DNA from: Acidobacteriota bacterium
GTDB lineage: Bacteria > Acidobacteriota > Holophagae > Thermotomaculales > Thermotomaculaceae
Assembly: GCA_013151025.1 (NCBI GenBank)
Contig: JAADJC010000061.1
Coordinates: 25,419 to 89,418 of the forward strand
Direction of reading: 5' to 3'
Length of the DNA: 64,000 nucleotides
The number at the start of each line of letters is the position of its first letter. Positions within the stretch are counted from its first letter, which is position 1. This document shows, one piece after another, positions 2,606-54,922 of this stretch. Under the pieces are notes generated by a model. That model searched no databases. It had not been told where the DNA came from and saw nothing but the letters and a program-made list of their open reading frames with translations. Made by a program: the position numbers and the translations under genes.

Positions 2606-3277
2606 ATGATGGGAGAATGCGTGCAACCTGACACTGTGGTTCTGATTCATGGCCTTGCCCGGACCCATCGTTCCATGTCAAAGATGGGCAAGGCACTCAG
2701 AGCCGAGGGATTTTCGACAGTTTTTCTCAGCCATCCATCCAGAAAACACAACCTGGATATATTGAGTCAACAGTACATTGTCCCTGAGCTTAAAGAAATA
2801 TTGTCCGCCGCCCATGAACCGGTGCATTTTGTAACCCATTCCATGGGCGGCATTCTTCTGCGGCTGGCTCTTCCCCACTTGGCTGTGGAAAATATCAGTA
2901 GAATTGTAATGCTTGCACCGCCGAATCATGGTTCTGAAATTGTGGAGAAAATGTGCAAATTCGCATGGTTTCGGTCATTCTTCGGGCCAGCTGCCCTGGA
3001 ATTGAACACAGCGAACCAGGATTTTCTCAAAAAACTGCCCCCTTTGCCCAATCACTGCGGGATTATTGCCGGTGACCGATCCGCTTTCCATCTCTTTGAC
3101 AAAGTTCTTCCCCGCCCCCACGATGGAACTGTGAGCGTGGCCAGCACGCGGGAAGCGGGGGCCAGTGCATATCTGATACTGCACTTCAGCCATCCTTTTA
3201 TCATGAGAGCAGACAGGGTTATCACAGAAACAATTCATTTCCTTCAGACCGGTAAATTTTCGAATTCTCCTGAATGA
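2606..3277 (+). CDS. Alpha/beta-fold hydrolase (esterase/lipase-like)
   Basis: VVLIHGL oxyanion region, nucleophile elbow HSMGG, and C-terminal D/H candidates. Confidence 0.75.
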   Translation: MMGECVQPDTVVLIHGLARTHRSMSKMGKALRAEGFSTVFLSHPSRKHNLDILSQQYIVPELKEILSAAHEPVHFVTHSMGGILLRLALPHLAVENISRIVMLAPPNHGSEIVEKMCKFAWFRSFFGPAALELNTANQDFLKKLPPLPNHCGIIAGDRSAFHLFDKVLPRPHDGTVSVASTREAGASAYLILHFSHPFIMRADRVITETIHFLQTGKFSNSPE

Positions 3278-3383
3278 AGACAAGTAAATAAACCTCACGG
3301 CAGAAGGAGAAGAGAGTAGAAAAGGTTGAGGAAAGACATAGAACCCGCCATTGGCCGTCCATCATTAACTCTTTCTTTGTTAC

Positions 3384-3427
3384 CTAACATCTAACATCTG
3401 ACATCTGACATCCGGCGCACTGCGCCG
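3384..3427 (-). repeat. Gene-end hairpin plus 4 tandem heptads
   Basis: CGGCGC-ACT-GCGCCG (3413-3427) lies 4 nt downstream of the pilT-like stop. In the transcription direction it is followed by GATGTCA GATGTCA GATGTTA GATGTTA (3384-3411). Confidence 0.8.
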
Positions 3428-3431
3428 CAAA

Positions 3432-4784
3432 CTATCCCAATCCTTTTGTTTTCAAGGTCTTTTTAAGATCATCGGGTTCCGTACTTCGGGCCAATGCATC
3501 CTGCGGGTTCACCAGTCCCTTTTCTATCAAAATCACAAGAGCGTCGTTCATCAATTGCATTCCCAGCACTTTCCCCGTCTGCATGAGAGAGGGTATCTGG
3601 AATGTTTTGCTCTCACGAATCAGATTGGCTACTGACGGCGTCACAATGAGAACTTCATAGGCTGCGATTCTGCCACCGCCTTTTTTCCTGCACAGAACTT
3701 GAGACACAACTCCCACCAATGAATCCGAAAGCATAACCCGAATCTGTGCCTGCTGATCCACCGGAAACTGATCCACAATCCGGTCCACTGTCCCCACAGC
3801 GGTAGCGGTGTGAAGGGTACCCAGAACCAGATGGCCGGTCACCGCCATTTCCACCGCAATAGCTATAGTCTCCAGATCCCGCATCTCACCCACAAGAATC
3901 ACATCCGGGTCCTCCCGGAGGGCTGAACGCAGTGATTTTTTGAAAGATTCGGTATGGGTATGGATCTCCCTCTGGTTCACATGGGATCTTTTATTTTCAT
4001 GGATAAATTCCAGCGGATCTTCAATGGTAATAATGTGTTTACTCTGGGTCTGGTTGATAAAATCCACTAAAGAAGCCAGTGTTGTTGATTTCCCACTGCC
4101 GGTGGGCCCGGTAACCAGAATCAACCCCTTGCTGAGGCTTGTCAATGCCACCACTTCTTTGGGCACACCCAGAGCCTCCAGAGAAAGTATTTCAGAAGGA
4201 ATGACACGAAAGACCACACATGCACCCCGGTGATCCCGGAATATGTTGGTCCGAAACCGCGCCAGCCCCGGCACTGAATAGGCAAGATCCACGTCATTTG
4301 TCTCCCTGAATTGCTCCAGAGCACTTTCCGGCACAATGGACTTCAATTGTTCAAGAAGTTCATTTTCAGTGACAGAACTGTATTCATTCAAAGTTTCAAT
4401 GTCTCCATCCAGACGGATAATCGGCCGACAACCGGAAGACAGGTGCAAATCAGATGCGCCTTTCTCCACAATTAATTTAAGGAGTTTCTTAATGTTGAAT
4501 TCTTTAATTTCCTGAGTAGATGGCTTTTCATATGTAAAAACAAGTTTTCCGCCTTGATTTGACATGCGAAAAACATCCGTGCCTATTTTTACAAAACCCC
4601 GGCCCTCTGAAATCGCCTGCCATTCGGAAAGAAGCATCCCGATTTCCTTTTCGCCAAGAGGTGCCCTGGTCAGGTTTCGAGTTCCCTCACGCACAATTGC
4701 AAACGGGATTTGACCTTTACTGACTTCCAGCCCTGTTCCTTTCAATTGCAGAACAGCTCCCAGCATTTTCTCAATATTTGTCAT
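3432..4784 (-). CDS. pilT: PilT-family type IV pilus retraction-type ATPase with a ~105-aa N-terminal extension
   Basis: ASDLHL, Walker A GPTGSGKST, Asp box, Walker B DVILVGEMRD, His box TGHLVLGTLHT. The start overlaps the upstream gene by 4 nt (ATGA). Confidence 0.85.
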   Translation of the reverse strand: MTNIEKMLGAVLQLKGTGLEVSKGQIPFAIVREGTRNLTRAPLGEKEIGMLLSEWQAISEGRGFVKIGTDVFRMSNQGGKLVFTYEKPSTQEIKEFNIKKLLKLIVEKGASDLHLSSGCRPIIRLDGDIETLNEYSSVTENELLEQLKSIVPESALEQFRETNDVDLAYSVPGLARFRTNIFRDHRGACVVFRVIPSEILSLEALGVPKEVVALTSLSKGLILVTGPTGSGKSTTLASLVDFINQTQSKHIITIEDPLEFIHENKRSHVNQREIHTHTESFKKSLRSALREDPDVILVGEMRDLETIAIAVEMAVTGHLVLGTLHTATAVGTVDRIVDQFPVDQQAQIRVMLSDSLVGVVSQVLCRKKGGGRIAAYEVLIVTPSVANLIRESKTFQIPSLMQTGKVLGMQLMNDALVILIEKGLVNPQDALARSTEPDDLKKTLKTKGLG

Positions 4785-5221
4785 TGATCCGTCGCCGTCG
4801 AAATCATCGTTTTGTTTACAAATAAACGTGCATTTTCAAAAATAAATTCAAGAAAGATGGTGTCAAGGTTGAGATAATCCTGAATTCGGCTGTGACTTTC
4901 CGGAAGCCTCTCTCCCATCTGACACGTAAAGACTTTTCCATCCTTTAACGCCAACACAATGTGCTTTCCCCTTCCGCCGATACTTTCCGAGTCATCCAGG
5001 AAGGCCATGATGCACCCGATGTTGATGATGTCAACTTTTCCATTCAGTTCGACCGGAACGAAATCTAAACCTGAATTGAGAAATTCCAAAACCGTTTCCG
5101 GTCCATGATCATAACGGGATGCGCTACTCAAAAAGAGACGGCAATCTTGAAAATCTGTGTGTCTCTCTCGCATAATTTGGAGTTTGATGGGAATTTTCGG
5201 AACCGTAAAATCCTTATTCAT
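4781..5221 (-). CDS. Hypothetical 146-aa protein, translationally coupled between the cNMP/FHA gene and the PilT-like gene
   Basis: The internal ATG at 5221 overlaps the upstream stop as ATGAATAA. The stop overlaps the pilT-like ATG. I recognised no domain. Confidence 0.6.
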   Translation of the reverse strand: MNKDFTVPKIPIKLQIMRERHTDFQDCRLFLSSASRYDHGPETVLEFLNSGLDFVPVELNGKVDIINIGCIMAFLDDSESIGGRGKHIVLALKDGKVFTCQMGERLPESHSRIQDYLNLDTIFLEFIFENARLFVNKTMISTATDQ

Positions 5222-5954
5222 CAATTCTCTCCGAGTATTCGCAGGCAACCAGGCCAAAATGAATTCTATCTCCATCTGTAACCGGATACCGCCGACCTGA
5301 TTCCAGCTTTTCTCCGTTGAGGTAGGTTCCATTAATCACGCCCATTTCCTCTTCCAGAAAACTTTCGCCATTCTCCCTCAGAACAACCGCATGTTTCCTG
5401 GAAACGGTTTTCTGCGGGTCAAACATACTGATATCAATGTCGGGACAGATACCGATTGTAGGGTCGTATCGGCCAATGAGATTTCGTTTCAGTGCCAGAG
5501 GAAACACCTGGTCGCTCCCCAATACCTTTAAGAGAGCGAACATATCAGATGATTTTCTAAAACCGGTTCGTTTAACCAGTTCATCAATCTTTTGTGTGGC
5601 ATCGCTGAGTCGCTCGGAGAATTTACGAATCATTTTGACCGCAATTTCAGGGTTTTTTCGTATCAGTGTCATGAACATTTCACGGTTAATCACTACGACT
5701 CTGGTATCTTCCATCGCCACCGCACTCTCATAGCGCTTTCCAGCTTTAATCACACCCAGCTCGCCGAAGATGTCCCCTTTCTGGTAGATACCGAGATCAA
5801 TCTGCTGGTCGGTAGAGTCTTTCTTAAAGAGTTTTACTGATCCGCTGGAAACGACGAACATAACAGATGCATTGTTTCCGTCGTTGTAAACCAGTTCCCC
5901 TTTTTTATATTCTACCTGTAAATTTTTGAAAGGATCTGCCAAAAAGTCCCCCAT
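5214..5954 (-). CDS. Cyclic-nucleotide-binding domain + FHA domain protein
   Basis: N-terminal CAP-family cNMP-binding fold (GDIFGELGV..., RYESAVA). C-terminal FHA signature (IGR...VSRKHAVV...NGTYLNGEKL...GDRIHFG). Confidence 0.85.
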   Translation of the reverse strand: MGDFLADPFKNLQVEYKKGELVYNDGNNASVMFVVSSGSVKLFKKDSTDQQIDLGIYQKGDIFGELGVIKAGKRYESAVAMEDTRVVVINREMFMTLIRKNPEIAVKMIRKFSERLSDATQKIDELVKRTGFRKSSDMFALLKVLGSDQVFPLALKRNLIGRYDPTIGICPDIDISMFDPQKTVSRKHAVVLRENGESFLEEEMGVINGTYLNGEKLESGRRYPVTDGDRIHFGLVACEYSERIDE

Positions 5955-6004
5955 ATAAAATAGAAGGGCCGGGAATAAAGCACCCCAGGCCCTGATTTAT
6001 ATCG

Positions 6005-8248
6005 CTACTGGGCTTCCACAACCGTCAATGCCGCCATGTTGAGAATTTCTTTCAATTCCGCATGCTTCTGCAGAATGTTCACCGGCTGCTTGAATCCAAC
6101 CAGCACCGGACCGACTACTGTGGCACCACCAAGGCGCTGTAACAGTTTGTATGAGATATTACCGGCATCCAGATCCGGAAAAATCAGGACATTTGCCCCA
6201 CCCTGCAAAGTGCTGAAGGGATAATGATCTTCCATAATTTCCGGAACTACCGCAGTATCTGCCTGCATCTCCCCGTCAATGAGAATATGCGGTGCTTTTT
6301 TCCGTACCAGTCTAACGGCTTCCCTCATTTTCCTCGCATACTGATGATCCGCACTTCCGAAGTTGGAAAAGGACAGCATCGCCACTTTGGGTTCCACGTT
6401 GAAATTACGCGCATAATCCGACACCTGGATCGCAATGTCGGCCAGCTCTTCCGCATTCGGCGTAATGTTCATGGTCGTATCGGCAAAAAACAGGAGTTTA
6501 CCTTTTACAATCACAATATACAAACCGGCAACCTTGCTTACCCCTTCCTTTCTCTCAATGAGCTCCAGACCTGGCCGCACGATTGTGGGATAATTATGGG
6601 TCAGACCGCCAAGAAGGCCATCTGCCCGGCCTTTCCGAACCATCATGGCCCCAAAGTAATGGGGATCCAGCATCCTTTTCTGCGCATCGGTCGGCGTAAC
6701 TCCTTTTCGTTTTCTGAGATTGTAATACTCGGAAACATAATCGGGATAATCATCATCATTCAGCGGGCAGACAATCTCCACATCCTTCTCAGAAATGCCG
6801 TGATGGTGAAGTATTGCTTTCACCTCTTCATCGTCAACGCTGATAAGAATCGGTTTCAGTACGCCATCCGTAATCAGTTCGCGGCAGGCAGACAGTATCT
6901 GTTCATTGTCACCTTCCGGAAAAGCAATCCGCTTCGGATTTGCCTTTGCCTTGTCAAAAATAACCTGCAGAAACTCCCGTGATTTGTCCAGAAGCATTTC
7001 AAGCCGGGCGCGATATTCATCAAAATCCTTAATCGGTTTCAGTGCGACGCCACTGTCCATGGCTGCTTTGGCAATTGCCGGTGCTTCCCAGTACAGAACA
7101 CGGGGGTCAAATGGCTTCGGGATGATATAATTACGGCCAAACTTGAATTTCTCGCCACCATAAGCGCGGGTCACGTAATCCGGTACCTCTTCTTTGGCAA
7201 GATCAGCCAGTGCATGGACTGCAGCCTTCATTTCTTCATTGATCTGGGTTGCCCGGACATCCAGTGCACCGCGAAAAATAAATGGAAAACCCAGCACATT
7301 ATTCACCTGGTTGGGGTAATCTGAACGCCCGGTGGCCATAATGGCATCATCCCTGATCTCCGCCACCTCTTCCGGAGTGATTTCCGGGTCCGGGTTTGCC
7401 ATTGCGAAGATAATCGGGTCTTTCTCCATTGTTTTGACCATTTCTTTCGTCAAAATTCCCTTGGCAGACACACCAATAAACACATCTGAGCCCTGCATTG
7501 CATCTCCCAGGGTACGAAGATCTGTGTCTCTGGCAAATTCTTCCTTATACGGATTCATCCCCTCCGTACGTCCCTTAAAAATTATACCCTTGCTGTCTGT
7601 CATAAACACATTGTCTTTTCTCACACCCAAATGTACAAACAACTTGGCACATGCAATCCCGGCAGATCCTGCACCGGCAAACACACATTTTACATCCTCA
7701 ATTTTTTTGTCGGTTATCTCCAGCGCGTTGAGAAATGCGGCTGCACAAATAATGGCAGTGCCGTGCTGGTCATCATGAAAAACAGGAATGTCGAGTTTTT
7801 TCTTCAACTCCTCTTCCACATAAAAGCATTCCGGCGCCTTGATATCTTCAAGGTTAATCCCGCCGAAAGTGGGAGCCAGAAGCTGCACTGCTTTAACAAT
7901 CTCATCCGGGTCTTCCGTGTCCAGGTTGATATCATAGACATCCACATCCGCAAAACGTTTGAACAGGACGCCCTTTCCTTCCATAACCGGCTTTCCGGCC
8001 AGAGCCCCTATATTCCCCAGTCCCAGAACTGCCGTTCCATTGGAAACCACACCCACCAGGTTTCCCTTGTTTGTGTATTCGTACGCAAGGCTTGGGTCTT
8101 TCTCAATTTCCAGGCAAGGAACAGCCACGCCCGGAGTATAAGCCAGAGCCAGATCCTTTGATGTTTCGCACGGTTTGCATGGGGTGACTTCCAGTTTGCC
8201 CTTTCGACCTTCCCCGTGGTACGCTAAAGCGTCTTCCCGTAAACCCAT
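6005..8248 (-). CDS. maeB: NADP-dependent malic enzyme with C-terminal phosphotransacetylase-like domain
   Basis: 747 aa. Malic enzyme N-terminal and NAD(P)-binding motifs ([15 protein letters not shown]) followed by a PTA-like domain. Confidence 0.92.
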
Positions 8249-8279
8249 AACATTTCTCCTCGAAAAAATTTACAGGTTC

Positions 8280-8307
8280 ATTGTAACGCATCAGAATTCC
8301 TTTGCAA
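8280..8307 (-). promoter_or_regulatory. Candidate sigma70-type promoter of maeB
   Basis: On the minus strand TTGCAA-N16-TACAAT, 31 nt upstream of the ATG, followed by a GAGGAG Shine-Dalgarno. Confidence 0.4.
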
Positions 8308-8318
8308 CGCTTTTCAAG

Positions 8319-8347
8319 TTGCAGCTATCCCTTTTGTCTTTTACAAT
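8319..8347 (+). promoter_or_regulatory. Candidate sigma70-type promoter of the transketolase-udk-ftsEX operon
   Basis: TTGCAG-N17-TACAAT, about 58 nt upstream of the first in-frame ATG. Confidence 0.4.
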
Positions 8348-8405
8348 GGGTGTACACAAGAAAGGGCGGTCCCGGCACACCGTATGCTTCCTGTTTGCCA
8401 TTTGT

Positions 8406-9266
8406 ATGGGAAAAAGCCTGTTAATTTTCGACGTGGAGGATAGCTTGAATCAAGATGAAGTGAAACGATTAAAAGCATTGGCCCGGAAGTTCAGAAGAGA
8501 AATCGTGGAAATGGTATACACCGCCCAGTCAGGCCACCCCGGCGGATCCCTGTCCATTATTGACATTTTAACCTACCTGTTTTTTCACGAAATGAAATAT
8601 CCGGTAAAAAACCGGGATGTTTTTTCGACAGACCGCCTCGTGATGAGCAAGGGACACGCGACCCCTGCCCTCTATTCCTGCCTCGCGGAAAAAGGGTTTT
8701 TCCCTGAAGCGGAATTGAAACGCTTTCGCCAGATTGATTCCATCCTTCAGGGGCACCCTGAAAATGAATTTGTCCCCGGCGTTGATGTAACCACCGGTTC
8801 CCTTGGGCAGGGATTCCCACAGGCGGTGGGAATGGCACTGGGTATGCGTCTGGCCGGATCCGACAAGCATGTATTTGCCATTATGGGAGACGGCGAATGC
8901 CAGGAAGGCATTATCTGGGAAGCCGCCATGTCCGCCGGCCATTACAAAACCGACAAGCTCACAGCGGTAGTAGATCTCAACGGGCTCCAGATTGACGGTA
9001 ACGTGAAAGATGTGATGAATGTCAACCCCGTTCCGGACAAGTTTGCCGCATCTCACTGGCATGTCCAGGAGATTGACGGCCACGATTTTAACGAAATTGA
9101 CAAAGCGGTCCGGACCGCCCATGCTGTAACAGATAAGCCATCCGTCATTATTGCCCACACCGTTAAAGGAAAAGGAGTTTCCTTTATGGAAAACAACTAT
9201 AAATTCCACGGTTCTCCCCCCAATGACGAACAATTCAAAATCGCCATGAAAGAGCTGGCCCCATGA
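8406..9266 (+). CDS. Transketolase, N-terminal (TPP-binding) subunit
   Basis: SGHPGGSLS, GDGECQEG and GLQIDG motifs. ATG 8406 is the first plausible start. TTG 8445 has a much better SD (GGAGGA, 5-nt spacing) and may be the true start. The ORF-track start at 8175 overlaps maeB. Confidence 0.85.
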   Translation: MGKSLLIFDVEDSLNQDEVKRLKALARKFRREIVEMVYTAQSGHPGGSLSIIDILTYLFFHEMKYPVKNRDVFSTDRLVMSKGHATPALYSCLAEKGFFPEAELKRFRQIDSILQGHPENEFVPGVDVTTGSLGQGFPQAVGMALGMRLAGSDKHVFAIMGDGECQEGIIWEAAMSAGHYKTDKLTAVVDLNGLQIDGNVKDVMNVNPVPDKFAASHWHVQEIDGHDFNEIDKAVRTAHAVTDKPSVIIAHTVKGKGVSFMENNYKFHGSPPNDEQFKIAMKELAP

Positions 9267-12763: not shown

Positions 12764-14761
12764 ATGAAGTGTCCGAGATGTCAGGGAACAATTACGGAAC
12801 GTTGTGGTCAGTGTCCCCATTGCGGTGCCGTATTCAGCAAGGAATCATCCGAGAGAATCTCACTCTATTTTGACGTAAAGGAACAGCTCACCTATCTGGA
12901 TACGCTGAAGTCCTATCTCGACACGTCGCTTACCACCCTCTCCGGGAGTCTCAGCCGGATTGAAGTGCTGGTAACAGATTCCATGAATGAAAAAGTCCCG
13001 GAAACCACAGGCAAGTCGGTGGCGGATACTCCGGAAACAAGCCCCGATTCAAACCTGGCAACTGAATTCGCGGACAAACTTCCCACAGAGTTTTATCCCC
13101 ACGAAACCAAAACCGATCAACCCGCCTCTGTAACAGCTCCCACTGAAACTGCCGGCATCGGGGAAGGTGAATTTCGTTTCGGTCAGAAATGGCTCCTCAT
13201 CATCGGCATCATTACCATGGTATTTGCCGTGGGGTATTTTCTGAAATATTCGTTCACAAAGGGATGGGTGGGTCCTGCAGGAAGAATCGGCCTCTCTTAC
13301 TTCTGGGGCATGGCTTTTCTTGGCCTCGGAGAATGGTTCCGCAAAAAGGAATTCCGCAGTTTCGGACTGTCCCTCGCTGGAGGCGGTATCGCGGTCCTCT
13401 ACTTTTCCACTTTTGCCGGTTTTCAACTCTATCACCTGATTCCCATGTGGCTCTCCTTTTCAATCATGATCCTTATCACGGTCTTTTCATGTGTGCTGGC
13501 AGTTGTGTATGATGCCAAATGGCTCGCCGCATTGGGTACACTGGGTGGATTTCTGACACCACTTTTCCTTTCCAACAACCAACCCAACCAGATTGCCCTT
13601 ATGAGTTACATGACCATTCTCAACCTGGGTATACTGGCACTGGCCACAAGAAAAAGCTGGCGTATACTGGAATCACTGGGATTCGTGTTTACATGGCTTC
13701 TGTACACATCGTGGTATGCCGTCTACTACAAAATGACTGTATTCTGGCCTTCTCTTATTTTCCTCATGGTCTTTTTTCTCATCTATGCCGTTCTCCCCGT
13801 TGCAGCAACCCTCTATCGGAAAGAAGCCCGGTCCCTTGGCGGAATGTGGTTTGCCGCTCCCAACGCCCTCATCGCCTTCGGTTTTGCGTTCGGCCTTGTG
13901 GCGGACCGGTACAGTACCCCCTACGTCGCCATTGTTACCCTGTTTATTGCCGTGGTATTCCTCACCCTTTCCAGCTGGCTTTCAGAACACGAATCCGTGG
14001 ATGGCCCTGCATTCTGGTACCTGATCGCCAACGCCGTATTTTTTCTGGTCCTCACGGTTCCCATCCTTTTCTCCTCAAACTGGATTACAATTTTCTGGGC
14101 ACTGGAAGCAGCTCTCCTCCTCTGGATGGGCCTGAAACTGGACAGAAAATGGATGGCAGTCACCGGCATTGTGCTGGCCATTCTTGTTACCGGCAAATTC
14201 TTTCTTTACGACTATCCCGTTGTCTTTCGGTTGGGCAGAAAGTGGTCCTATTTCAAGGTTCCGTACACCCGGGATATCCTTGAACGTTTACTGACCAGTG
14301 CCGCACTCCTTGGCTCGTTATACTGGGCGGGCCGAAAACTCCGCGCCACAGTCGGCGCCACATGGAACAGACTGGGCAGCCTGTTTACCGGCATCTTCGC
14401 CGCCTCTCTCTTTTTAATACTGACTATTGAAACTGCCGCATTTTTCTATCAGCATGCTTCCGTGGCCCGGTTCGCATCTATCTCCGTACTCTGGGCTGTT
14501 TTTGCTTCTATCCTCATGATACAGGGTTTCCGGCAGGAAAACAGCGCAATGCGCAAAACAGCCATCGGCATCTTTCTCGTCACCCTCTTCAAGGTGTTTT
14601 TCATGGACATCTCCCATTTCAGCACACCCTACCGTATTCTTTCCTTTATGGTTCTGGGCCTGCTCCTCATCGGTTCTTCCTGGCTCTACCATCGCTTCAA
14701 TGAAAAGTCGTCGCGGGAAAATCAAACCATGGGAAATGGAGACTCAGATGAACCGGCGTAG
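12764..14761 (+). CDS. DUF2339-like polytopic membrane protein with N-terminal zinc-ribbon
   Basis: CPRC...CPHC ribbon, a coiled/low-complexity linker, then more than 15 predicted TM helices. The family assignment is from memory of that architecture. Confidence 0.7.
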   Translation: MKCPRCQGTITERCGQCPHCGAVFSKESSERISLYFDVKEQLTYLDTLKSYLDTSLTTLSGSLSRIEVLVTDSMNEKVPETTGKSVADTPETSPDSNLATEFADKLPTEFYPHETKTDQPASVTAPTETAGIGEGEFRFGQKWLLIIGIITMVFAVGYFLKYSFTKGWVGPAGRIGLSYFWGMAFLGLGEWFRKKEFRSFGLSLAGGGIAVLYFSTFAGFQLYHLIPMWLSFSIMILITVFSCVLAVVYDAKWLAALGTLGGFLTPLFLSNNQPNQIALMSYMTILNLGILALATRKSWRILESLGFVFTWLLYTSWYAVYYKMTVFWPSLIFLMVFFLIYAVLPVAATLYRKEARSLGGMWFAAPNALIAFGFAFGLVADRYSTPYVAIVTLFIAVVFLTLSSWLSEHESVDGPAFWYLIANAVFFLVLTVPILFSSNWITIFWALEAALLLWMGLKLDRKWMAVTGIVLAILVTGKFFLYDYPVVFRLGRKWSYFKVPYTRDILERLLTSAALLGSLYWAGRKLRATVGATWNRLGSLFTGIFAASLFLILTIETAAFFYQHASVARFASISVLWAVFASILMIQGFRQENSAMRKTAIGIFLVTLFKVFFMDISHFSTPYRILSFMVLGLLLIGSSWLYHRFNEKSSRENQTMGNGDSDEPA

Positions 14762-16079
14762 CTTCATTGTTCCAATACTTCTGGTTCTCAGCTCCATGGC
14801 AATGAGCGCTGATCCATTGAAACCGGAGAATTTTCAGTACTCCAGAACACTTCAGGGGCCGCTAAAGCCCGGAAAGGTTTACAAAGTCGCACTCCCGGGA
14901 GAAGTGCTGGACCATACCGCCATTGACCAAAGGGATGTCCGTATCTTTTCCCCGAAAGATTCCCTGATCCCGTTCACAATTCTGAAAGAACACCGGCCTG
15001 CGATTCCCCGGACCCAGTACAAATTGAACATTCGTGACTTTTCCACGGCAAAAGGCAGCACCACCATGGTACTGGCGGTTCCTGAAGATGCCGAAGCGAT
15101 TCGCATGCTCTACTTTTCCACCCCCAACCGCAACTTCAAAAAATCAATTTCAATCAGCAGCAGCAACGACAAGAACACCTGGACTCCCCTTGTCAACGAG
15201 AGCCTGTTCGATTTCAGCCGGAATGTGGATCTCCGCAAGACATCCGTTTCCTTTGAACCGGTACAATGCCGATGGTTTAAAGTTGTGCTGAAAGACGTCG
15301 ACTTCCCCCCGGAAAACGAAGCTGTTCAACTGAAATACAAGGATCTGGAATTCTCCACCACCGGCAAATCAGCCGTCCCATTCAGAATCAATTCCGTCAC
15401 AGCTTCCACCAGGGCCAAAAACACAAAAACGAATACCACCGACACCATGGAATTGAAGAACTTCACCACCACGACTGATTCCAGGGACAACACCGTGATT
15501 TCATTTTCAACCGGAATTCCGATTTCCAGCATATCCATCGTGACAACCACCCCTGCTTTCTACCGGACTGTGTCATTGAAGGGAGAACAGGTTATACTGG
15601 ACCGCCACGACGTCTCACTGGCCAGTGGCACATTCTACAAATTTTCACTGGGCCCCCGAACCGAACAGCAGTTGAAACTCTCAGCTCGTCCCTCCGACAC
15701 CGGCAACTACAAACTGACCATCTTCAACGGCGACAACACACCGCTTACCATTACCGCACTCCAATTGAACTGGGTTCGAAGGAACCTCTTTCTCGTTCCG
15801 GAACTCGGAACCCTGCAAAGCGCCACCCTCTGCTACGGCAATCCCAAAGTGGCAAAACCTCATTTTGACGTGGCACGCTTTATCCGCCAGGACAACTGGG
15901 AACAGCACAACGCCACAACAATTGAACCGGAGTCATCGGTCAAGAACACTGCCTTCCAACAGGCAGAAAAACCCTGGACCCCGGAATTCTCCCGTATCGC
16001 GCTGCGCCTCCTCGTATTGATGATTGTCGCCGTGCTGGGCATCTGGCTCTACCGCCTGTTAAGTAGAAGACAAGGTTGA
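14748..16079 (+). CDS. DUF3999-like secreted protein with C-terminal membrane anchor
   Basis: Start chosen at ATG 14748 (GGAGA SD), giving a signal peptide MNRRSFIVPILLVLSSMAMSA. C-terminal TM IALRLLVLMIVAVLGIWLY. 14-nt overlap with the DUF2339-like gene. Confidence 0.55.
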   Translation: MNRRSFIVPILLVLSSMAMSADPLKPENFQYSRTLQGPLKPGKVYKVALPGEVLDHTAIDQRDVRIFSPKDSLIPFTILKEHRPAIPRTQYKLNIRDFSTAKGSTTMVLAVPEDAEAIRMLYFSTPNRNFKKSISISSSNDKNTWTPLVNESLFDFSRNVDLRKTSVSFEPVQCRWFKVVLKDVDFPPENEAVQLKYKDLEFSTTGKSAVPFRINSVTASTRAKNTKTNTTDTMELKNFTTTTDSRDNTVISFSTGIPISSISIVTTTPAFYRTVSLKGEQVILDRHDVSLASGTFYKFSLGPRTEQQLKLSARPSDTGNYKLTIFNGDNTPLTITALQLNWVRRNLFLVPELGTLQSATLCYGNPKVAKPHFDVARFIRQDNWEQHNATTIEPESSVKNTAFQQAEKPWTPEFSRIALRLLVLMIVAVLGIWLYRLLSRRQG

Positions 16080-27798: not shown

Positions 27799-29187
27799 AT
27801 GAAAACCAGAGCATTGATTCTTGCCGCCGGTGAAGGAACCCGGATGCGATCTCAGCTTCCGAAGGTTTTCCACAAGGTGGCCGGCATCCCGATTCTTTTT
27901 CGTGTTTTGCAAACACTTGCCCCCCTTTCACAGCAGATCGCCGTTGTATTGGGGAGGGATTTTGAACAATCTGCGACAATGCTTCGTTCTGCCTACCCTG
28001 AGACCTCTGTTTTTCACCAGAATAAGCGCATGGGAACCGGCCACGCGGTAAGTTGTGCTCTTTCTTTTTACAAGGATTTTGATGGTTACGTTCTGGTTCT
28101 TCCGGGAGACTTGCCCCTTCTTTGTGCCGAATCTCTCACCTCGTTCCTGAATTTGAGCAAGACTGAAAATGTGGACTGTGCCATTCTGGGCTTTGAACCG
28201 GAAAACCCTTTCGGCTATGGGCGAATTGTCGCAGACAATGACGCGTTTTCTGCAATTGTGGAAGAAAAGGATGCGTCAGAAGAGGAACGGAATATTCGCC
28301 TTGTAAATGGAGGCGTCTATATTTTCAGAGCAAGGCACCTTGTGGAATTCCTCCCTGCAATCGAAAATAACAATGCGCAAAAGGAATATTACCTGACCGA
28401 CCTCCCTGCTATTCTGATGAAAAAGGGATTTGATGTTCGGGTTATCACCGCCAACGACCCCGATGACTTTCTCGGTGTAAACAACCGGGAACAGTTGGCC
28501 TTTGCTGACACAACCGCTTTGAACCGGCAAAAGCGAAACCTGATGCTGTCCGGCGTCACCATCCTGAACCCGGAAAGTGTTCGAATTGAAGATACGGTTG
28601 AGATTGAACCTGACACGACTGTTTATGGACCCGCTCATATTTTCGGCAAAACAACTATTCAAACCGGTTGCGTCCTTCAGCCCGGAGCCGTAATCAGGAA
28701 TGCAATCATCGGAAAAAATTGCGAAGTAAAACCCTATTCTATCATCACGGAATCTACAATCGGCAGCGGTTGCACTATCGGTCCTATGGCTCACCTTAGA
28801 CCCGGAACTGTGTTGAATGCCGGAGTCAAGGTCGGAAATTTCGTGGAGACTAAAAAAGCAATCCTCCATCCAGGTGTCAAAGCTTCCCATTTGAGCTACC
28901 TCGGTGATACCGAAATCGGAGAGGAAACCAATATCGGAGCCGGAACGATTACCTGCAACTATGACGGGGAAAAGAAACATCGGACAGAAATCGGAAAACG
29001 CGTGTTTATCGGCTCCGACAGCCAGCTGGTCGCACCCCTTTCCATCGGGGATGATGCTTATGTCGGCGCAGGTTCCACCATTACCAAGGACGTGCCGCCC
29101 TGCTCTCTTGCCATCTCCCGTGCCAGGCAGACCACTATCCCGGATTGGGCAAAGAAAAAGAAGGGGAAAAAATGCAATCAGAGCTGA
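27799..29187 (+). CDS. glmU: Bifunctional GlcNAc-1-P uridyltransferase / GlcN-1-P acetyltransferase
   Basis: LAAGEGTRMRS nucleotidyltransferase motif and C-terminal left-handed beta-helix hexapeptide repeats. Confidence 0.93.
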   Translation: MKTRALILAAGEGTRMRSQLPKVFHKVAGIPILFRVLQTLAPLSQQIAVVLGRDFEQSATMLRSAYPETSVFHQNKRMGTGHAVSCALSFYKDFDGYVLVLPGDLPLLCAESLTSFLNLSKTENVDCAILGFEPENPFGYGRIVADNDAFSAIVEEKDASEEERNIRLVNGGVYIFRARHLVEFLPAIENNNAQKEYYLTDLPAILMKKGFDVRVITANDPDDFLGVNNREQLAFADTTALNRQKRNLMLSGVTILNPESVRIEDTVEIEPDTTVYGPAHIFGKTTIQTGCVLQPGAVIRNAIIGKNCEVKPYSIITESTIGSGCTIGPMAHLRPGTVLNAGVKVGNFVETKKAILHPGVKASHLSYLGDTEIGEETNIGAGTITCNYDGEKKHRTEIGKRVFIGSDSQLVAPLSIGDDAYVGAGSTITKDVPPCSLAISRARQTTIPDWAKKKKGKKCNQS

Positions 29188-30266
29188 AAGGCACAATCAA
29201 CCTGATGGCCATAGCCGATGTATTGCAGTGGATTCACCATGGCCATAAGACAGGAGCCCTCCATCTGGCTGGAGATCGTTTCAAAAAACAAATTTTCTTC
29301 AAGGACGGGCAAATCGTTGCCACATCCTCCACCAATCCCCGGGAATACCTTGGACAGTTTCTGATCAGCTATGGGAAAATCACCGAAGAAGGGTTGAAAG
29401 AATTGCTGGAAACCCAGGAAAAAAACGAATTGATGCTGGGAAAGCTTCTGGTAGATGAAGGCATTCTTACACTTTCCGAAATCCGGATGTTTCTTGAAAT
29501 CAAGGCACAGGAATCTCTGTTTGATATTTTTCTCTGGGAGTCCGGTGAATTTGAGTTCATGGACGGAGAAAGTCTTGGTAAAGAATTCATTGATATTAAT
29601 CTTGATGTCACTACGATTATTCTGGAAGGGGTCCGCCGGGTAGACGAGTGGGCACGGATACGGAAAATCATCCCAAACGGAGAATATACTCCGATTACAG
29701 ACGCCATCCGGGTCATCAATGCACTCCCTCTTTCATCCAATCTCACAAAGTTGCTCCGCGCTGTGGATGGGAAAAGAAATATTGATGACATCGCAATGGA
29801 GTTCCGATCTTCACGGTTCATTGTTTTCAAGAACCTGTTTGAGTGCCATGAAAATGGCCTTGTTCGAATGAAAAAACCAAAGCAGGCGTTGCAGAATGAA
29901 CTTGCGGAAGAAGTGGCTCCTAAGGTCAAAGCACTGGCGGAATCCGGGTTCATTGAGCCTTATCTCATGGCAGAATCTTTCCTCGTAAAATATCCAGGCT
30001 CCAAACCAATTCAGAAACAACTGAATGTACTGATCCAGAAAGCAGAAAAGGTAATTCGACAAGGTATCGCAGTCCCTCACCTTGCATGTTCCCTGAACGA
30101 TCTTGCAACCCAGAGCCTCTCCCCGGAAGAAGGCTTTCTGGTATCCAGAATCAATGGGAAATGGGATATCAACTCCATTATCAAGATTTCCCCCATTCCG
30201 GAAGAACGCGCAAAAATGATTTTTGCAGAATTGGTAAGCAAGAGTATAATTAAATTCGATGAATGA
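29172..30266 (+). CDS. DUF4388 (PATAN-like) domain protein
   Basis: ATG 29172 overlaps the glmU end. N-terminal GTINLMAIADVLQWI...KTGALHL...IFFKDGQIV is the DUF4388 signature. Confidence 0.75.
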   Translation: MQSELKGTINLMAIADVLQWIHHGHKTGALHLAGDRFKKQIFFKDGQIVATSSTNPREYLGQFLISYGKITEEGLKELLETQEKNELMLGKLLVDEGILTLSEIRMFLEIKAQESLFDIFLWESGEFEFMDGESLGKEFIDINLDVTTIILEGVRRVDEWARIRKIIPNGEYTPITDAIRVINALPLSSNLTKLLRAVDGKRNIDDIAMEFRSSRFIVFKNLFECHENGLVRMKKPKQALQNELAEEVAPKVKALAESGFIEPYLMAESFLVKYPGSKPIQKQLNVLIQKAEKVIRQGIAVPHLACSLNDLATQSLSPEEGFLVSRINGKWDINSIIKISPIPEERAKMIFAELVSKSIIKFDE

Positions 30267-45502: not shown

Positions 45503-48436
45503 TTAAAACACAAACGTATGTGTAAAATAGACTTTAACCCGCACGCCATCTTTCATAGCCGGCGTGAATTTCCATTTACTGAATGCCCGAATCGCTGCCT
45601 TCCCAAAATTGTTGCGTACTTTGACAGAATTCTGAAGTACCCGAACTTCACCGGCAACGACATTACCATTTTCATCAATCAAGCCCTGCACAAGCACTTC
45701 CCCGTGCAGATTCCGCCGCCGATCAATCACAGACGATCTTGCCCTGACTGTTTTTACTGGCGTGGGGAATACGACCTCGCCTTCAATGAGCGCCACCAGG
45801 TCCCCTTCTTTTGTTTTGGGAATAATGGGTTGGGGTATTGGTTTTATTTCTACAGGTTTCTTTACGACCGGTTCAAGGACAGGTTTTTCAACCACCGATT
45901 CTGGCTCCACTGTGGCCGGTTCATTCGTCGTTATACCTGTTGTTTCCTTTGCGGCAGTCTCATTTCCGGATGCCGGCTTCTTTGTAGTTGTTTTACCGGT
46001 ATCAGCTACTTTCGATTCCACTGCTTTAACTTCCGGCTTGGCCGCTTCGACTGCCGCTGGTGTTGTCGAAACAGTCTTTTTCTCTGCAACAACCGTCTTC
46101 TTGACCGGTTTTGGAGTCGATTTTTTCATTTTTTTCTGCTTCTTCAATTTCGCTTCCTCTTCCGCCAACTTCTTCTCCAACAGCTGTTGCACCAACTTTT
46201 CCCTGTCGATGCCCAGCACCGCTGAAGATGTAGTAGAAGCATTCGTCTGTGAGCCTGCAACCCCCTCTCCCTCAGCTTCCTGCCCGGCAGTCGGTGTTGC
46301 TGTCTCACCCTGAACCACAGTCGATGTCGGGGACTCAGGCTCTGTGGCTGTCTGGGTCTGAGGTTTCCGGGTTACCTGCCGGGCCGGAGCCGGTTTACGC
46401 ATCATGGCAAAATAACCGATTACACCAAGTATAATAACCACAACCACAATAGCTACGATTAATCCCGTCTTGTTGCCACCGCTACCACCGCCGAACTGCT
46501 CAATCAATTCGTCCTCATGTTTCTCCACATCTTCCAGATCAGGCATTATCATCGTACCGCTATCCATCTTGACTGTCGCGTTTACGTCCACGTCTTCATT
46601 CAGGTCGTCCAGGGTAAGTGCAGCGGCCGCTTCCTGCTCTGATTTGGGAGTCGGCACTTCAACTTCCTCAGGCTCGACCTCTTCATTCACGGTATACCGT
46701 CGGGAGATCTCTTCAATTGTGTTCATATCCCCCTGGTAGAGCGCATTGACAAACTGAGCAAGTATTCTCTCGTTTACTGCAAAGGGCAAAGATTCCATCA
46801 AGCCGTGAAGTTCTGATTCCATCTCCTTCGCACTCTGGAAACGATTCTCAATTTTTTTGGAAAATGCCTGGCGAATCAGTCGTTCAGTACCCTTGGACAC
46901 ATCCTCGTTCACTTCCTGAATCGGCGTATACTGAACCTTTCTCACTTTTTCCAGGATACTGATTTCACTGTCTGCGAGGAAACATTTTTTCCCGGTGATG
47001 GATTCGTATATCACGGATGCCAGCGAGAAAAGGTCGGAACGGTTGTCAATTGGTTTGCCATAGGCCTGTTCCGGAGACATATAGAGCAACTTGCCTTTCA
47101 GAGCTCCGGCCTGAGTATGGCTGGCTTTTGTGGCTGCCTTCGCAATACCGAAATCTACCAGCTTCACGTCCCCACCCTTTGAAATCAGAATATTCTGTGG
47201 GCTGATATCCCGATGGACAATCTTCAGGTCCTTCATGTCCAGACCTTTTTTCCGGTGCGCGTAATCCAGTGCGCTGAGCATTTTGCTCGCAATAAACAAA
47301 ACAAGCGGCTCTGGAATGCGTATTTTCTTCTTCTTACATTCCTTCAGAACATTACGAAGATCATAGCCTTCTACATATTCCATTGCTATATAGAACGAGT
47401 TTTCAATCTTTCCAAGGTCGTAGATCTGCGCAATATTGGGGTGGTTCAATTGAGCTGCAAGTTTGGCCTCATCAATAAACATCGTTACAAATTCTTCATT
47501 ATCAACAAGATGCGACAAAATTCGCTTAATTGCTACAATTTTTTGAAATCCCTGTACACCCCTTCGTTTCGCCTTGAACAGCTCCGCCATTCCACCTGTA
47601 GCCACTTTTTCCAGAAGCACGTAACTTCCATATTCAATTCCTTCGTTCTTCCCTTTCTTTTTCGATTTGTCTTCTGCTTCTGCTTTTGTTCTTCTTGGCT
47701 CGGGTGTTTCCGACTTTACTTCAACTTCCCGTTTCTTAACTTCAGGCCCCTGATCCAATTCAGGTTTTGGCTTCGGCTCTTCCATGGGCTTCGGAGAAAC
47801 TTCTACAACCGGTTCCTCCTTATGAGTCTCTTTTGCTTCCTTTGCCTTTTCCAGTTCCGCTATTGCCCCTAAATCTCCAGGCGCCTCTTCCACGTCTTTA
47901 ATCACATCACTGAAGATGTCGGATGAAGTAAGTACCGGTTCTTCTGAAGTTTTTTTCTTGTGCGAAATTGATTTCCCACCGGGCATTTTGCCGGACATGG
48001 TTTCTTCAAGGATTTCTTCCAGGCGTCTCCGGGCAGATGCCTTCTTCTTCGGCTTTGCAGGGGGTTCAGACAATTCCATGTACTTCTTAACCAGTGTCTG
48101 GAGTGTTTCATCTTCAAATGGCTCTTCCAGGTATTCCTTTACACCGTACTTGCTTATGGCCTCTGTCCGATAGCGGTTGCCCTTGTACACTGAAGTGACC
48201 ATAATAATGGGCAGGCCGGGATGTTCTGATGTTAATTTCTGAGCCACCTCAAAACCGGACAATTTTGGGAGCATGGGGTCAATAATGGCGAGATCAGGTA
48301 CAAACTCTTCCACAATATCCAATGCTTCAATACCGTTTTTGGCTGTCATAGACTCGTACCCGAGGTCTACGATTAGTTCATTCAGCCTGGAGAGTCGCTT
48401 TGGTTCGTAATTGACAATCAAAACTTTTTTTACCAT
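45503..48436 (-). CDS. REC receiver + Ser/Thr protein kinase + TM + low-complexity spacer + TonB_C domain fusion
   Basis: REC (AIIDPMLP). Hanks kinase motifs (GGMAELFKA, AIKR, HRDISPQNIL, DFGIAKA, SPEQ). TM GLIVAIVVVVIILGVIGYFAMM. P/T/K/E-rich spacer. C-terminus GEVLVQGLIDENGNVV...SKWKFTPAMKDGVRVKV. Confidence 0.85.
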   Translation of the reverse strand: MVKKVLIVNYEPKRLSRLNELIVDLGYESMTAKNGIEALDIVEEFVPDLAIIDPMLPKLSGFEVAQKLTSEHPGLPIIMVTSVYKGNRYRTEAISKYGVKEYLEEPFEDETLQTLVKKYMELSEPPAKPKKKASARRRLEEILEETMSGKMPGGKSISHKKKTSEEPVLTSSDIFSDVIKDVEEAPGDLGAIAELEKAKEAKETHKEEPVVEVSPKPMEEPKPKPELDQGPEVKKREVEVKSETPEPRRTKAEAEDKSKKKGKNEGIEYGSYVLLEKVATGGMAELFKAKRRGVQGFQKIVAIKRILSHLVDNEEFVTMFIDEAKLAAQLNHPNIAQIYDLGKIENSFYIAMEYVEGYDLRNVLKECKKKKIRIPEPLVLFIASKMLSALDYAHRKKGLDMKDLKIVHRDISPQNILISKGGDVKLVDFGIAKAATKASHTQAGALKGKLLYMSPEQAYGKPIDNRSDLFSLASVIYESITGKKCFLADSEISILEKVRKVQYTPIQEVNEDVSKGTERLIRQAFSKKIENRFQSAKEMESELHGLMESLPFAVNERILAQFVNALYQGDMNTIEEISRRYTVNEEVEPEEVEVPTPKSEQEAAAALTLDDLNEDVDVNATVKMDSGTMIMPDLEDVEKHEDELIEQFGGGSGGNKTGLIVAIVVVVIILGVIGYFAMMRKPAPARQVTRKPQTQTATEPESPTSTVVQGETATPTAGQEAEGEGVAGSQTNASTTSSAVLGIDREKLVQQLLEKKLAEEEAKLKKQKKMKKSTPKPVKKTVVAEKKTVSTTPAAVEAAKPEVKAVESKVADTGKTTTKKPASGNETAAKETTGITTNEPATVEPESVVEKPVLEPVVKKPVEIKPIPQPIIPKTKEGDLVALIEGEVVFPTPVKTVRARSSVIDRRRNLHGEVLVQGLIDENGNVVAGEVRVLQNSVKVRNNFGKAAIRAFSKWKFTPAMKDGVRVKVYFTHTFVF

Positions 48437-53727: not shown

Positions 53728-54015
53728 TCACGCATCGCGTCGAAGTCGGACTTGAAGGCGGGATAATCGAAGGGGATAACGATTCAAGGCCCGAACAATG
53801 GTATCTGCTTCCGCACGAAACGCAGCAAAGTATTCTCTTGCCTCAATTTCCACTGTCAATGTACCCCCCACCAGACTGACCGGCTTTCCCCAACTGCATA
53901 CCGGCTCCGGTATTACACGGTTCCACATCATCTTGATGAATTCCAGGGGTGGACACCCCCATTTCAGAAGCAGTTCGGGAGAAATGGTCTTGAAGTATTT
54001 ATCCGTCACGCTCAA
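53728..54015 (-). CDS. DUF721 (DciA-like) protein
   Basis: W..V.....S....L..GTLTVEIE....F..F......I...LN pattern typical of DUF721 (recalled). 17-nt overlap with the upstream gene. Confidence 0.5.
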   Translation of the reverse strand: MSVTDKYFKTISPELLLKWGCPPLEFIKMMWNRVIPEPVCSWGKPVSLVGGTLTVEIEAREYFAAFRAEADTIVRALNRYPLRLSRLQVRLRRDA

Positions 54016-54922
54016 AACCGACCACCTTGTTTTTCCCCTCTTGTTTCGCTCTGTACATCATGGAATCAACAGCAACCAACATTTCCTGGGCGGAATTGAA
54101 ATTTTCGTTTTCCAGAGTCACAACCCCGAAACTGGCCGATATGGACAAGGAAATAGCTCCGTATTCAAATTTATGACTTGAAAGTGCATCCCGAAGTATT
54201 TCAGTTTTCTGCATCGCTGCCGGATACTGGGTATTTTTCATTACAATGACCATCTCTTCCCCGCCATACCTGGAAAAAAAGTCAATTTCACGGATTTTCG
54301 TCTTCACCACGTATACCACATCTTTCAACACCATATCTCCACATGTATGTCCGTACTTGTCATTTACCTGTTTAAAGTCATCCAGATCAAAGAACACCAG
54401 ACTTAATGGAAGAGCTGTTCGGTGATGAAAAAGAAATTCCTTTCGAAAATTCTCCTGGAAATACGTACGGTTATAGATCCCGGTCAGAGGATCCCGAGTG
54501 GCCTTGTTAAACAACATCCGGTTGATATCCAGATCAATCTGGTCGGTATAAGCAAATTTGAACGCGCAGATATCTCCGAGAAACACCCGGTCTCCATTCT
54601 TCAGCGCCCGAACCTGCACCTGTTCACCGTTCACAAAAGTCCCGTTGGTGCTGTTCAGATCCCTGACAAACACATTTTTTCCCTGGCGAAACACTGCGCA
54701 ATGCTTTCGGGAAAGCGCAGTAATATCAAGGCAAATATCGCATTCAGGGCTTCGCCCAATTGTCAGTTCCATGGCCACATTTACAGTAACTGTCTTTCCC
54801 AGCATTTCGTTTACCAGCAGCGTAATTGTCGGTGTAATACTGGGTTTCATCAATGCCTGTTTCTTTAACGCTTCAACATTTATAATGTCGGTGGTGTCAA
54901 ACCGCTTTCTCATGTCTGCCAT
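53999..54922 (-). CDS. FHA domain + GGDEF diguanylate cyclase
   Basis: FHA (IGRSPECDICL...LSRKHCAVF...STNGTFVNGE). GGDEF domain with active-site RYGGEEM and the upstream DPLTGIYNR. Confidence 0.85.
   Translation of the reverse strand: MADMRKRFDTTDIINVEALKKQALMKPSITPTITLLVNEMLGKTVTVNVAMELTIGRSPECDICLDITALSRKHCAVFRQGKNVFVRDLNSTNGTFVNGEQVQVRALKNGDRVFLGDICAFKFAYTDQIDLDINRMLFNKATRDPLTGIYNRTYFQENFRKEFLFHHRTALPLSLVFFDLDDFKQVNDKYGHTCGDMVLKDVVYVVKTKIREIDFFSRYGGEEMVIVMKNTQYPAAMQKTEILRDALSSHKFEYGAISLSISASFGVVTLENENFNSAQEMLVAVDSMMYRAKQEGKNKVVGFERDG

Follow-up and report, generated by a model that had tools for sequence, protein, structure and literature searches.

The 64,000-nt window analyzed here (the whole stretch, from contig JAADJC010000061.1 of the Acidobacteriota bacterium assembly GCA_013151025.1) carries on its minus strand a compact unit of three overlapping genes. 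They encode a protein that joins a cyclic nucleotide monophosphate (cNMP)-binding domain to an FHA domain (g1), a small protein made of two tandem beta-barrels (g2), and an ATPase of the PilT family with an extra N-terminal domain (g3). On balance, we think it likely, if not strongly so, that the locus is a regulated PilT-type hexameric motor module. Its elements include an undescribed conserved partner of PilT, an undescribed duplication of the PilT N-domain, and an unusual, lineage-restricted sensor. Together the three genes probably represent an undescribed way of regulating a well-known motor. To our knowledge, PilT is the strongest molecular motor known, and we know of much less understanding of how its retraction is switched on and off than of how PilB is regulated. 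The elements of the locus, with lengths in amino acids (aa), are:

5214..5954, minus strand: g1, cNMP-binding and FHA protein, 246 aa (open reading frame (ORF) call, Pfam)
4781..5221, minus strand: g2, tandem small-beta-barrel protein, 146 aa, ATG at 5221 (ORF call, orthologues)
3432..4784, minus strand: g3, PilT-family ATPase with an extra N-terminal domain, 450 aa (ORF call, TIGR01420)
5214..5221, minus strand: overlap of g1 and g2, ATGAATAA, 8 nt (base-by-base reading)
4781..4784, minus strand: overlap of g2 and g3, ATGA, 4 nt (base-by-base reading)

Base-by-base reading placed the g2 ATG at 5221-5219 and the g1 TAA at 5216-5214, and likewise the g3 ATG at 4784-4782 and the g2 TGA at 4783-4781. 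This bears out an initial annotation of the window, which had described three minus-strand genes overlapping end to start. The longest ORF for g2 would run to 183 aa and begin inside g1; orthologues support the 146-aa start instead, and they also back the 450-aa start of g3. Among the loci used for comparison (designated L001 and so on), the 8-nt overlap of g1 and g2 recurs in L001-L006 and measures 11 nt in L062, while the 4-nt overlap of g2 and g3 is found in L001-L008, L059, L060 and L062.

The core conserved unit is the pair of g2 and PilT, which occurs across several phyla and mostly without the cNMP-FHA gene. The initial annotation had taken the triad as the unit. The triad does recur down to 61% PilT identity (L062, L006), in L062 at that identity and with a downstream context that differs from the window, but it is the pair that forms the core. 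A degenerate DNA pattern for P-x4-R-V-[KR]-D-[FY]-L-N-[QH], scanned over 185,579 species genomes, gave 46 loci, which a local hidden Markov model (HMM) divided into 35 genuine g2 homologues and 11 chance matches. In all but three of the genuine loci (32 of 35), g2 directly follows a PilT-core gene on its own strand, frequently with a 4-nt overlap. These PilT genes were called at 350-413 aa, the canonical length. Of the remaining three loci, two are truncated at the edge and one holds a half-size remnant of 70 aa. On the Desulfuromonadales side, the 35 loci belong to Geopsychrobacteraceae, Geothermobacter, Desulfuromusa, Pelovirga (including the isolate P. terrestris) and Geobacteraceae; the others belong to Nitrospirota/Manganitrophus, Aegiribacteria/Fermentibacteria and Gemmatimonadales.

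The order of the two genes changes between lineages. PilT comes before g2 in Desulfuromonadales, Nitrospirota, Aegiribacteria and Gemmatimonadales, and g2 comes before an N-extended PilT in Acidobacteriota, a metagenome-assembled genome (MAG) of Omnitrophota, and others. In L059 (on a contig of 1 Mb), L060 (labelled Clostridiales) and L061 (Omnitrophota), a g2-family gene of 147-151 aa (HMM E 1e-48 to 1e-50) stands directly upstream of an N-extended PilT, with a 4-nt overlap at the junction in the first two and a 7-nt gap in the third. No pilus or cNMP-FHA genes were found around these three pairs, and their flanks are otherwise unrelated. Further arrangements are:

L006: cNMP-FHA, g2 (a relative 35% identical), N-extended PilT
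L008: g2, then an overlapping gene that opens with the N-extension motif
L009 (Aminicenantes): g2, then a 494-aa PilT
L010: g2 alone
L011 (Geothermobacteraceae-like): a 357-aa PilT, then g2, overlapping and in reversed order
L012, 190-6992: g2, PilT, PilT, MshEN-T2SSE-REC

In a rough neighbour-joining tree, the ATPases of the 'PilT then g2' and 'g2 then extended PilT' arrangements form sister clades. The same tree sets the g2-linked PilTs apart from those of P. aeruginosa and A. aeolicus, a separation that is indicative only, given the few outgroups. Adjacency that persists through changes of order, phylum and flanks is strong comparative evidence that g2 and PilT would function jointly.

Two of these loci have further genes nearby. 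L012 is the only locus seen in which the module sits beside other pilus-type ATPases, and its g2-headed cluster, which comprises two PilT genes plus an MshEN-T2SSE-REC ATPase, is preceded by REC and REC-PAS genes. In L061, a REC-PatA_N gene (7468-8574, minus strand) lies ~1 kb from the g2-PilT pair.

The third gene of the window divides into a PilT core and an added N-terminal domain:

3432..4499, minus strand: canonical PilT core of g3, aa 96-450, N-domain and ATPase domain (PilT alignment)
4521..4784, minus strand: extra N-terminal domain of g3, aa 1-88, followed by a short linker, aa 89-95 (homologues, hhalign, AlphaFold2)

The core of g3 scores 450.3 bits against the NCBIfam model TIGR01420 (cutoff 319.1), with aa 98-439 covering model positions 2-343 of 343, and 170.7 bits against PF00437 (cutoff 24.9). 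It aligns with P. aeruginosa PilT 3jvu over aa 97-439 at E 3.7e-109 and with A. aeolicus PilT at E 1e-107. Its Walker A (GPTGSGKST), Asp box (IEDPLEF), Walker B (ILVGEMRD) and His box (TGHLVLGTLHT) all align with those of the same two PilTs and are invariant in alignment A8. The PilT-specific AIRNLIRE reads SVANLIRE in g3 and AVSNLIRE in the subfamily consensus, so that NLIRE is kept and AIR is altered. The AlphaFold2 model of g3, with a predicted local distance difference test (pLDDT) score of 86.7, matched most of the top PilT chains in Foldseek at a target-normalised template-modelling (TM) score of 0.90-0.95, over the core only. By score and motifs, g3 belongs to the PilT/PilU family and is predicted to be catalytically complete. 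It does not match the canonical two-domain PilT architecture of ~345 aa, being 450 aa long with an added N-terminal domain.

The initial annotation had already recognized a PilT ATPase here and credited it with an extension of ~105 aa. The family assignment (TIGR01420) holds, and the extension shrinks to ~95 aa because canonical PilT already has ~14 residues before the ASDLHL motif, which starts at residue 110 of g3; alignments to PilT structures in the PDB begin at residue 85-97. This extension is widely shared, as 78 of the 120 best g3 homologues (48-100% identity, 432-498 aa) cover at least 96% of the query, and the named records among the extended homologues include MAGs labelled Chrysiogenales, Omnitrophota, Delongbacteria and Acidobacteriota. 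Their alignment reveals a conserved domain of ~88 aa (M-x-N-I-E-K-L-L-D-A...G-E-x-L-V-I...E-P-P...), and the linker between this domain and the canonical PilT start is very variable in length and often rich in proline.

Several comparisons point to the origin of the added domain. Searched against the PDB, the extension profile found its best matches at the very N-terminal ends of two proteins, Thermus PilT2 and P. aeruginosa PilU (E ~0.02). When 60-sequence profiles were compared by hhalign, residues 3-42 of the extension aligned in register with residues 97-136 of the PilT N-domain (Prob 87%, E 3.7e-6). In the AlphaFold2 model, the extension runs H3-13, E18-23, E28-31, E34-37, H45-59, E64-67, E70-77, E80-86, and the canonical N-domain runs H98-108, E112-117, E122-125, E128-131, H140-162, E164-171, E175-184, E187-195. 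Both N-domains therefore have the same alpha-beta3-alpha-beta3 order, and pLDDT in the extension is mostly 80-92. No solved PilT structure spanning the extension appeared in the Foldseek PDB search, and Pfam gave no match to the MshEN domain (PF05157) there. A word-index search with the 109-aa extension alone returned nothing, which looks like a limit of the index since the full-length g3 query found dozens of extended homologues. The extension is thus a genuine domain, conserved among homologues, and represents a degenerate second copy of the N-domain of PilT itself.

Public gene calls differ at this position. NCBI begins the window g3 at Met74 (377 aa) and an orthologue, L002 6438-7790, at residue 96 (355 aa); JGI and ENA give 450 aa for both. 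Four relatives of canonical length nest within the extended PilT clade of the rough tree, which suggests that these too may have been truncated in gene calling. Given such truncated calls, the N-extended PilT architecture may be under-represented in databases.

The middle gene, g2, is identical to 'hypothetical protein GXO70_05645'. It had been annotated as lacking any recognizable domain, and indeed no Pfam or NCBIfam domain matches it and PADLOC yielded no usable match for it, but AlphaFold2, Foldseek and hhalign resolve it into a tandem small beta-barrel. A word-index search returned seven close relatives (58-100% identity). A profile search of 1.84 billion cluster representatives, clustered at 50% identity, enlarged the family to at least 262 proteins at E <= 1e-3, among them 50 that reach E <= 1e-10; almost every member is a stand-alone protein, 145-165 aa long. 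Of the 66 aligned relatives, 54 match DUF6812 (PF20660, a 53-position model) at E <= 0.1, usually once per repeat. Some of these exceed the DUF6812 cutoff (36.6 bits), and the window g2 itself reaches 12.1 bits (E 0.21; cutoff 27.1), which would make it at best a remote DUF6812 relative. Its two repeats, and a shorter relative, are:

4994..5197, minus strand: g2 repeat 1, aa 9-76, beta-beta-alpha-beta-beta-beta, motif ETxxEFLN (hhalign, AlphaFold2)
4787..4975, minus strand: g2 repeat 2, aa 83-145, motif LPExxSRxxDYLN (hhalign, AlphaFold2)
L035 4379-4591, plus strand: 70-aa ORF with a single (the second) g2-family repeat, not beside a PilT gene (g2 HMM)

The two halves of g2 align with each other over 63 columns (hhalign Prob 96.8%, E 2.8e-10), and g2 is an internal tandem duplication of a small beta-barrel of ~65 aa. 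The 70-aa ORF of L035 may be a remnant or else a DUF6812 protein with one domain. The best-conserved parts of g2 are the two short helices that carry ETxxEFLN and LPExxSRxxDYLN, and all 66 aligned members share R112, D115 and N118. The AlphaFold2 model (pLDDT 76.9, predicted TM score 0.74) shows beta-beta-alpha-beta-beta-beta twice. Searched whole against the PDB with Foldseek, it retrieved tandem Tudor domains; searched by halves, each retrieved a long list of Hfq chains, and the closest structural matches were subunits of Hfq hexamers. A g2 half superposes on Hfq with a root-mean-square deviation of 1.6-2.0 A over ~61 residues, at a target-normalised TM score of 0.54-0.70 and a probability of ~1, though the E-values reach no better than 0.2-0.5. 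With moderate confidence, we take the modeled g2 to be a tandem Sm/SH3-like small barrel.

We place no confidence in a putative homology of g2 to Hfq. No sequence similarity was found when alignment A2 was compared with E. coli Hfq by hhalign (Prob 3.8%), and in that comparison a helix is inserted after Sm strand 2 and before strand 3 (beta2/beta3). A PDB sequence-profile search with g2 returned only noise, and the PilZ motifs RxxxR and D/NxSxxG are absent from g2 by inspection. The initial annotation had raised the prospect that g2 and the N-extension of g3 might turn out to be known pilus accessory domains; neither matched any.

The first gene, g1, pairs two well-supported domains and follows a malic-enzyme gene:

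5652..5915, minus strand: cNMP-binding beta-roll of g1, aa 14-101 (PF00027; cassette FGELGV..GKRYE)
5253..5477, minus strand: FHA domain of g1, aa 160-234 (PF00498)
6005-8248, minus strand: NADP-malic-enzyme gene maeB, with malic and PTA_PTB domains (Pfam; also L006 1-465 and L062 1-1326)

The Pfam matches are at E 7.7e-20 for the cNMP-binding domain (71.1 bits against a cutoff of 27.5) and E 4.8e-13 for FHA (49.8 bits against 20.7). Neither Pfam nor NCBIfam finds a helix-turn-helix (HTH) domain in g1, whose C-terminal half is FHA; its CRP/FNR matches in NCBIfam all fall far under their cutoffs and span the cNMP part only. The combination of cNMP-binding and FHA domains with no DNA-binding domain, as first proposed from the open reading frames, is therefore confirmed. 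The best PDB match is Thermus CRP 4ev0 (E 3.5e-16, aa 16-146), which aligns without gaps through the beta-roll and the long C-helix. Orthologues of g1 begin 4 codons later, at MADPF/MSDPF, and their alignment A9 spans 73-95% identity. Within it, the residues predicted to contact phosphothreonine in the FHA domain are invariant (G161-R162, S185-R-K-H188, N208-G-T210). In the phosphate-binding cassette, G64, E65 and R74 are invariant among orthologues. The position that follows the Arg, canonically Ser/Thr, varies: the window has Tyr, L001 has Leu, L006 has Thr and L062 has Ser. Binding of a cNMP by g1 is plausible but not assured. With no HTH domain, g1 is by its domain content not a CRP/FNR transcription factor; it looks like a CRP-type dimeric cNMP sensor in which FHA has replaced the HTH.

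Within the set of loci examined, g1 turned up in the window clade, L001-L006 and L062 and nowhere else, always with g2-PilT, so that the cNMP-FHA gene joins the pair only in a Holophagae-like subclade. In all of these loci maeB lies directly upstream of g1, even where the downstream context differs. Genes of cNMP type also occur near g2-PilT in the Aegiribacteria/Fermentibacteria loci L026 and L034; we take these as coincidence because sister loci lack them.

As a regulated PilT-type motor module, the locus would work as follows. We infer that g2 physically binds the ATPase of its PilT clade, where it would modulate the ATPase cycle or the docking of the motor to the pilus platform; speculatively, a trimer of its tandem barrels would fit the three- or six-fold symmetry of the motor. 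In Acidobacteriota and several other phyla, the ATPase has acquired a second, degenerate N-domain on a flexible linker, and this extra domain of g3 would offer an additional docking surface. The g1 protein, translationally coupled ahead of the pair, would dimerize via its CRP-type C-helix; cNMP binding would reposition its FHA domains, and these would dock on a phosphothreonine of g2, g3 or a platform protein. Second-messenger and Ser/Thr-kinase signals would thereby be coupled to pilus retraction. Judged by domain content, such gating of the motor by cNMP and Ser/Thr phosphorylation is plausible.

A bolder version of this proposal is possible, and we hold it tentatively. The g2 family would be a widespread cofactor of a distinct PilT clade, its Sm-like barrels (for example in a pseudo-hexameric ring built from three tandem-barrel copies) sitting on the PilT hexamer and setting its conformation or platform engagement, and in Holophagae-like bacteria the cNMP-FHA protein would wire this assembly to cAMP/cGMP and kinase signalling. 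If true, a pilus retraction motor would here receive cNMP input post-translationally, the first such case. A g2 protein kept beside a PilT clade across many phyla would in any case give a new, testable handle on retraction control, and structural work could take the duplicated N-domain as a natural variant. As a CRP-type sensor re-used for a protein-protein rather than a DNA output, the cNMP-FHA adaptor would be out of the ordinary. For type IV pilus specialists, a cross-phylum partner and a duplicated domain should be both unexpected and readily testable.

Several observations weigh against a regulated retraction motor. No pilus gene lies in the 64-kb window or beside the module in most loci. 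The g2 homologue of L010 is solitary, and that of L035 is an orphan of half size. For g2, AlphaFold2 gave one confident model out of five, because the alignment is shallow, and Foldseek returned the Sm-like fold with weak E-values (0.08-0.5). The window g1 has Tyr where canonical cassettes place Ser/Thr after the Arg, which bears on its predicted ligand binding. Finally, the linkage of g1 is less independent of synteny than that of g2: maeB is co-conserved upstream of it, and therefore synteny and function are not fully separable for this gene.

The first of these observations leads to the most serious alternative, namely that a PilT-like motor acts here away from type IV pili, in nucleic-acid handling, DNA uptake or a secretion-type process, with g2 as an RNA or nucleic-acid partner. 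Pfam, run on most ORFs of at least 150 aa, found no PilB/C/M/N/O/P/Q in the window, where the only PilM_2 match is weak and lies inside FtsA; a prepilin-type G-[F]-T-L-I-E motif is absent from all its frames. These scans agree with the initial annotation, which saw no other pilus genes nearby, and they mean that a role of g3 in pilus retraction is one we infer from its family membership only. The module is orphaned from pilus genes in nearly all other loci as well, the nearest structural relatives of the g2 halves are Hfq hexamer subunits, and the g2-linked PilTs form their own clade apart from the two reference PilTs. Furthermore, non-pilus roles have been proposed for G. sulfurreducens PilT paralogues (PMC5065972). 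However, pilT genes commonly sit apart from pilus clusters, and g3 is ~50% identical to bona fide retraction ATPases with every motif present. The Hfq-like fold of g2 comes with no Hfq sequence similarity and with a helix inserted between beta2 and beta3, and the g2-like gene of L012 comes first in a cluster that also contains two PilT genes and a PilB/MshE-type ATPase. We therefore regard a motor acting off the pilus as unlikely, if deserving of attention, and continue to favor a regulated retraction motor.

A second alternative concerns g1 alone, which could act elsewhere, for example on the NADP-malic enzyme or on unrelated phosphoproteins, and be merely co-transcribed with g2-PilT. The conserved adjacency of maeB and g1 in the window, L001-L006 and L062 would fit this, as would the fact that the majority of g2-PilT modules work without g1. 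Yet g1 overlaps the start of g2 by 8-11 nt in every g1 locus, a gap of ~50 nt with a hairpin parts it from maeB, and it was seen in the loci examined here only together with g2-PilT; we judge a separate role for g1 to be quite improbable. Very little, lastly, speaks for an ordinary housekeeping pilT whose neighbours are kept by local synteny and whose overlaps are the usual operon punctuation, with no joint function: 4-nt ATGA overlaps are, as is generally known, common in bacterial operons, the closest relatives L001-L005 are syntenic with the window over >10 kb, and maeB precedes g1 throughout, but g2-PilT adjacency is kept in both orders, in several phyla and among unrelated flanks, the triad survives altered downstream context in L062, and mere synteny is largely refuted for g2 and g3.

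The remaining features of the window lie outside the three genes:

5969..5988, minus strand: weak terminator-like hairpin, inside the 50-nt gap from the malic-enzyme gene to g1
45503-48436, minus strand: the 'Hanks kinase' of the initial annotation, REC, Pkinase and TonB_C, 977 aa (Pfam)
53999-54922, minus strand: its 'second FHA protein', FHA and a GGDEF diguanylate cyclase (Pfam)

The hairpin gives no sign of function, as predicted promoters and terminators are no more numerous here than in shuffled sequence. A promoter scan found no sigma-70-like promoter in the 50-nt gap upstream of g1, and an Rfam scan of 3000-6500 gave no RNA elements. The kinase and the second FHA protein, which had been brought into connection with the triad, are both present but lie 40-50 kb away and unlinked to it; we dropped the link because only domain types are shared. 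The combination of REC, a Ser/Thr kinase and a C-terminal TonB_C in one protein is an unusual architecture, and the FHA-GGDEF protein would tie phosphothreonine signalling to synthesis of cyclic di-GMP (c-di-GMP). A defence-system reading was likewise rejected, since the PADLOC matches are generic cNMP or P-loop similarities. The window otherwise holds housekeeping and transport genes (malic enzyme, split transketolase, FtsEX, FeoAB, an RND efflux pump, TrkAH) together with aconitase-type subunits, RuvB, FtsQAZ and MurC. Adjoining DUF2339 (predicted membrane protein) and DUF3999 genes at 12764-16079 (plus strand) form an uncharacterised pair. A DUF4388/PATAN-domain protein is encoded at 29145-30266 (plus strand), not adjacent to the triad; PATAN regulators are reported to touch the cyanobacterial pilus motor (bioRxiv 10.1101/2021.06.11.447907).

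Searches of the literature for DUF6812, or for PilT with FHA, cyclic-nucleotide or Sm-like terms, found no account of such a module, and its parts are best placed by comparison with known systems. The PilT/PilU retraction ATPases (TIGR01420; 3jvu/3jvv; G. metallireducens PilT4 6ojx) share the fold of the g3 core and are 47-50% identical to it. Unlike canonical PilT, g3 has an extra N-domain of ~88 aa, reads SVANLIRE for AIRNLIRE, and belongs to ATPases always paired with a g2-family gene. With CRP/FNR receptors (Thermus CRP 4ev0, E. coli CAP), g1 shares the cNMP beta-roll, the long C-helix and the Gly-Glu/Arg of the cassette; unlike them, it has FHA in the position of the HTH and Tyr after the cassette Arg. 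In the PilZ-FimX-PilB and MshEN (MshE/PilB) systems, second messengers are coupled to the pilus motor through a small beta-barrel or an N-terminal domain; their targets are assembly ATPases and the messenger sensed is c-di-GMP. In contrast, g2 lacks the PilZ motifs, and the g3 extension resembles the PilT N-domain rather than MshEN.

A parallel to g2 comes from cyanobacteria, in which the pilus ATPase PilB is part of a complex with Hfq and EbsA (PMC8092324; Schuergers et al. 2014, as cited in PMC8092324); according to PMC8092324, this Hfq has no identified RNA substrates. There a small Sm-fold protein joins a type IV pilus motor ATPase along with a lineage-specific small partner, and g2, with its predicted Sm-like fold, would do likewise. 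In the cyanobacterial complex, however, the motor is the assembly ATPase PilB, Hfq is a single-domain hexamer encoded elsewhere, and the association is physical, whereas here the ATPase is of PilT type, g2 is an adjacent two-barrel protein with an inserted helix, and its association with the motor is putative. In G. sulfurreducens, the orphan paralogue pilT2 (GSU0230) adjoins a hypothetical gene, GSU0231 (PMC5065972). A parallel to g1 is found in the Tad-like Kil system of M. xanthus, whose ATPase KilF is fused to an N-terminal FHA domain (PMC8460266). There too FHA is tied to a hexameric ATPase of the secretion superfamily, suggesting an input from Ser/Thr phosphorylation, although in KilF the ATPase that carries it is of CpaF/TadA type and belongs to a complete pilus cluster, and here it resides in a separate cNMP-FHA protein beside a PilT-type ATPase. 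With the Hfq-EbsA-PilB complex and the FHA domain of KilF as precedents, the mechanism proposed for g1 and g2 is a reasonable one.

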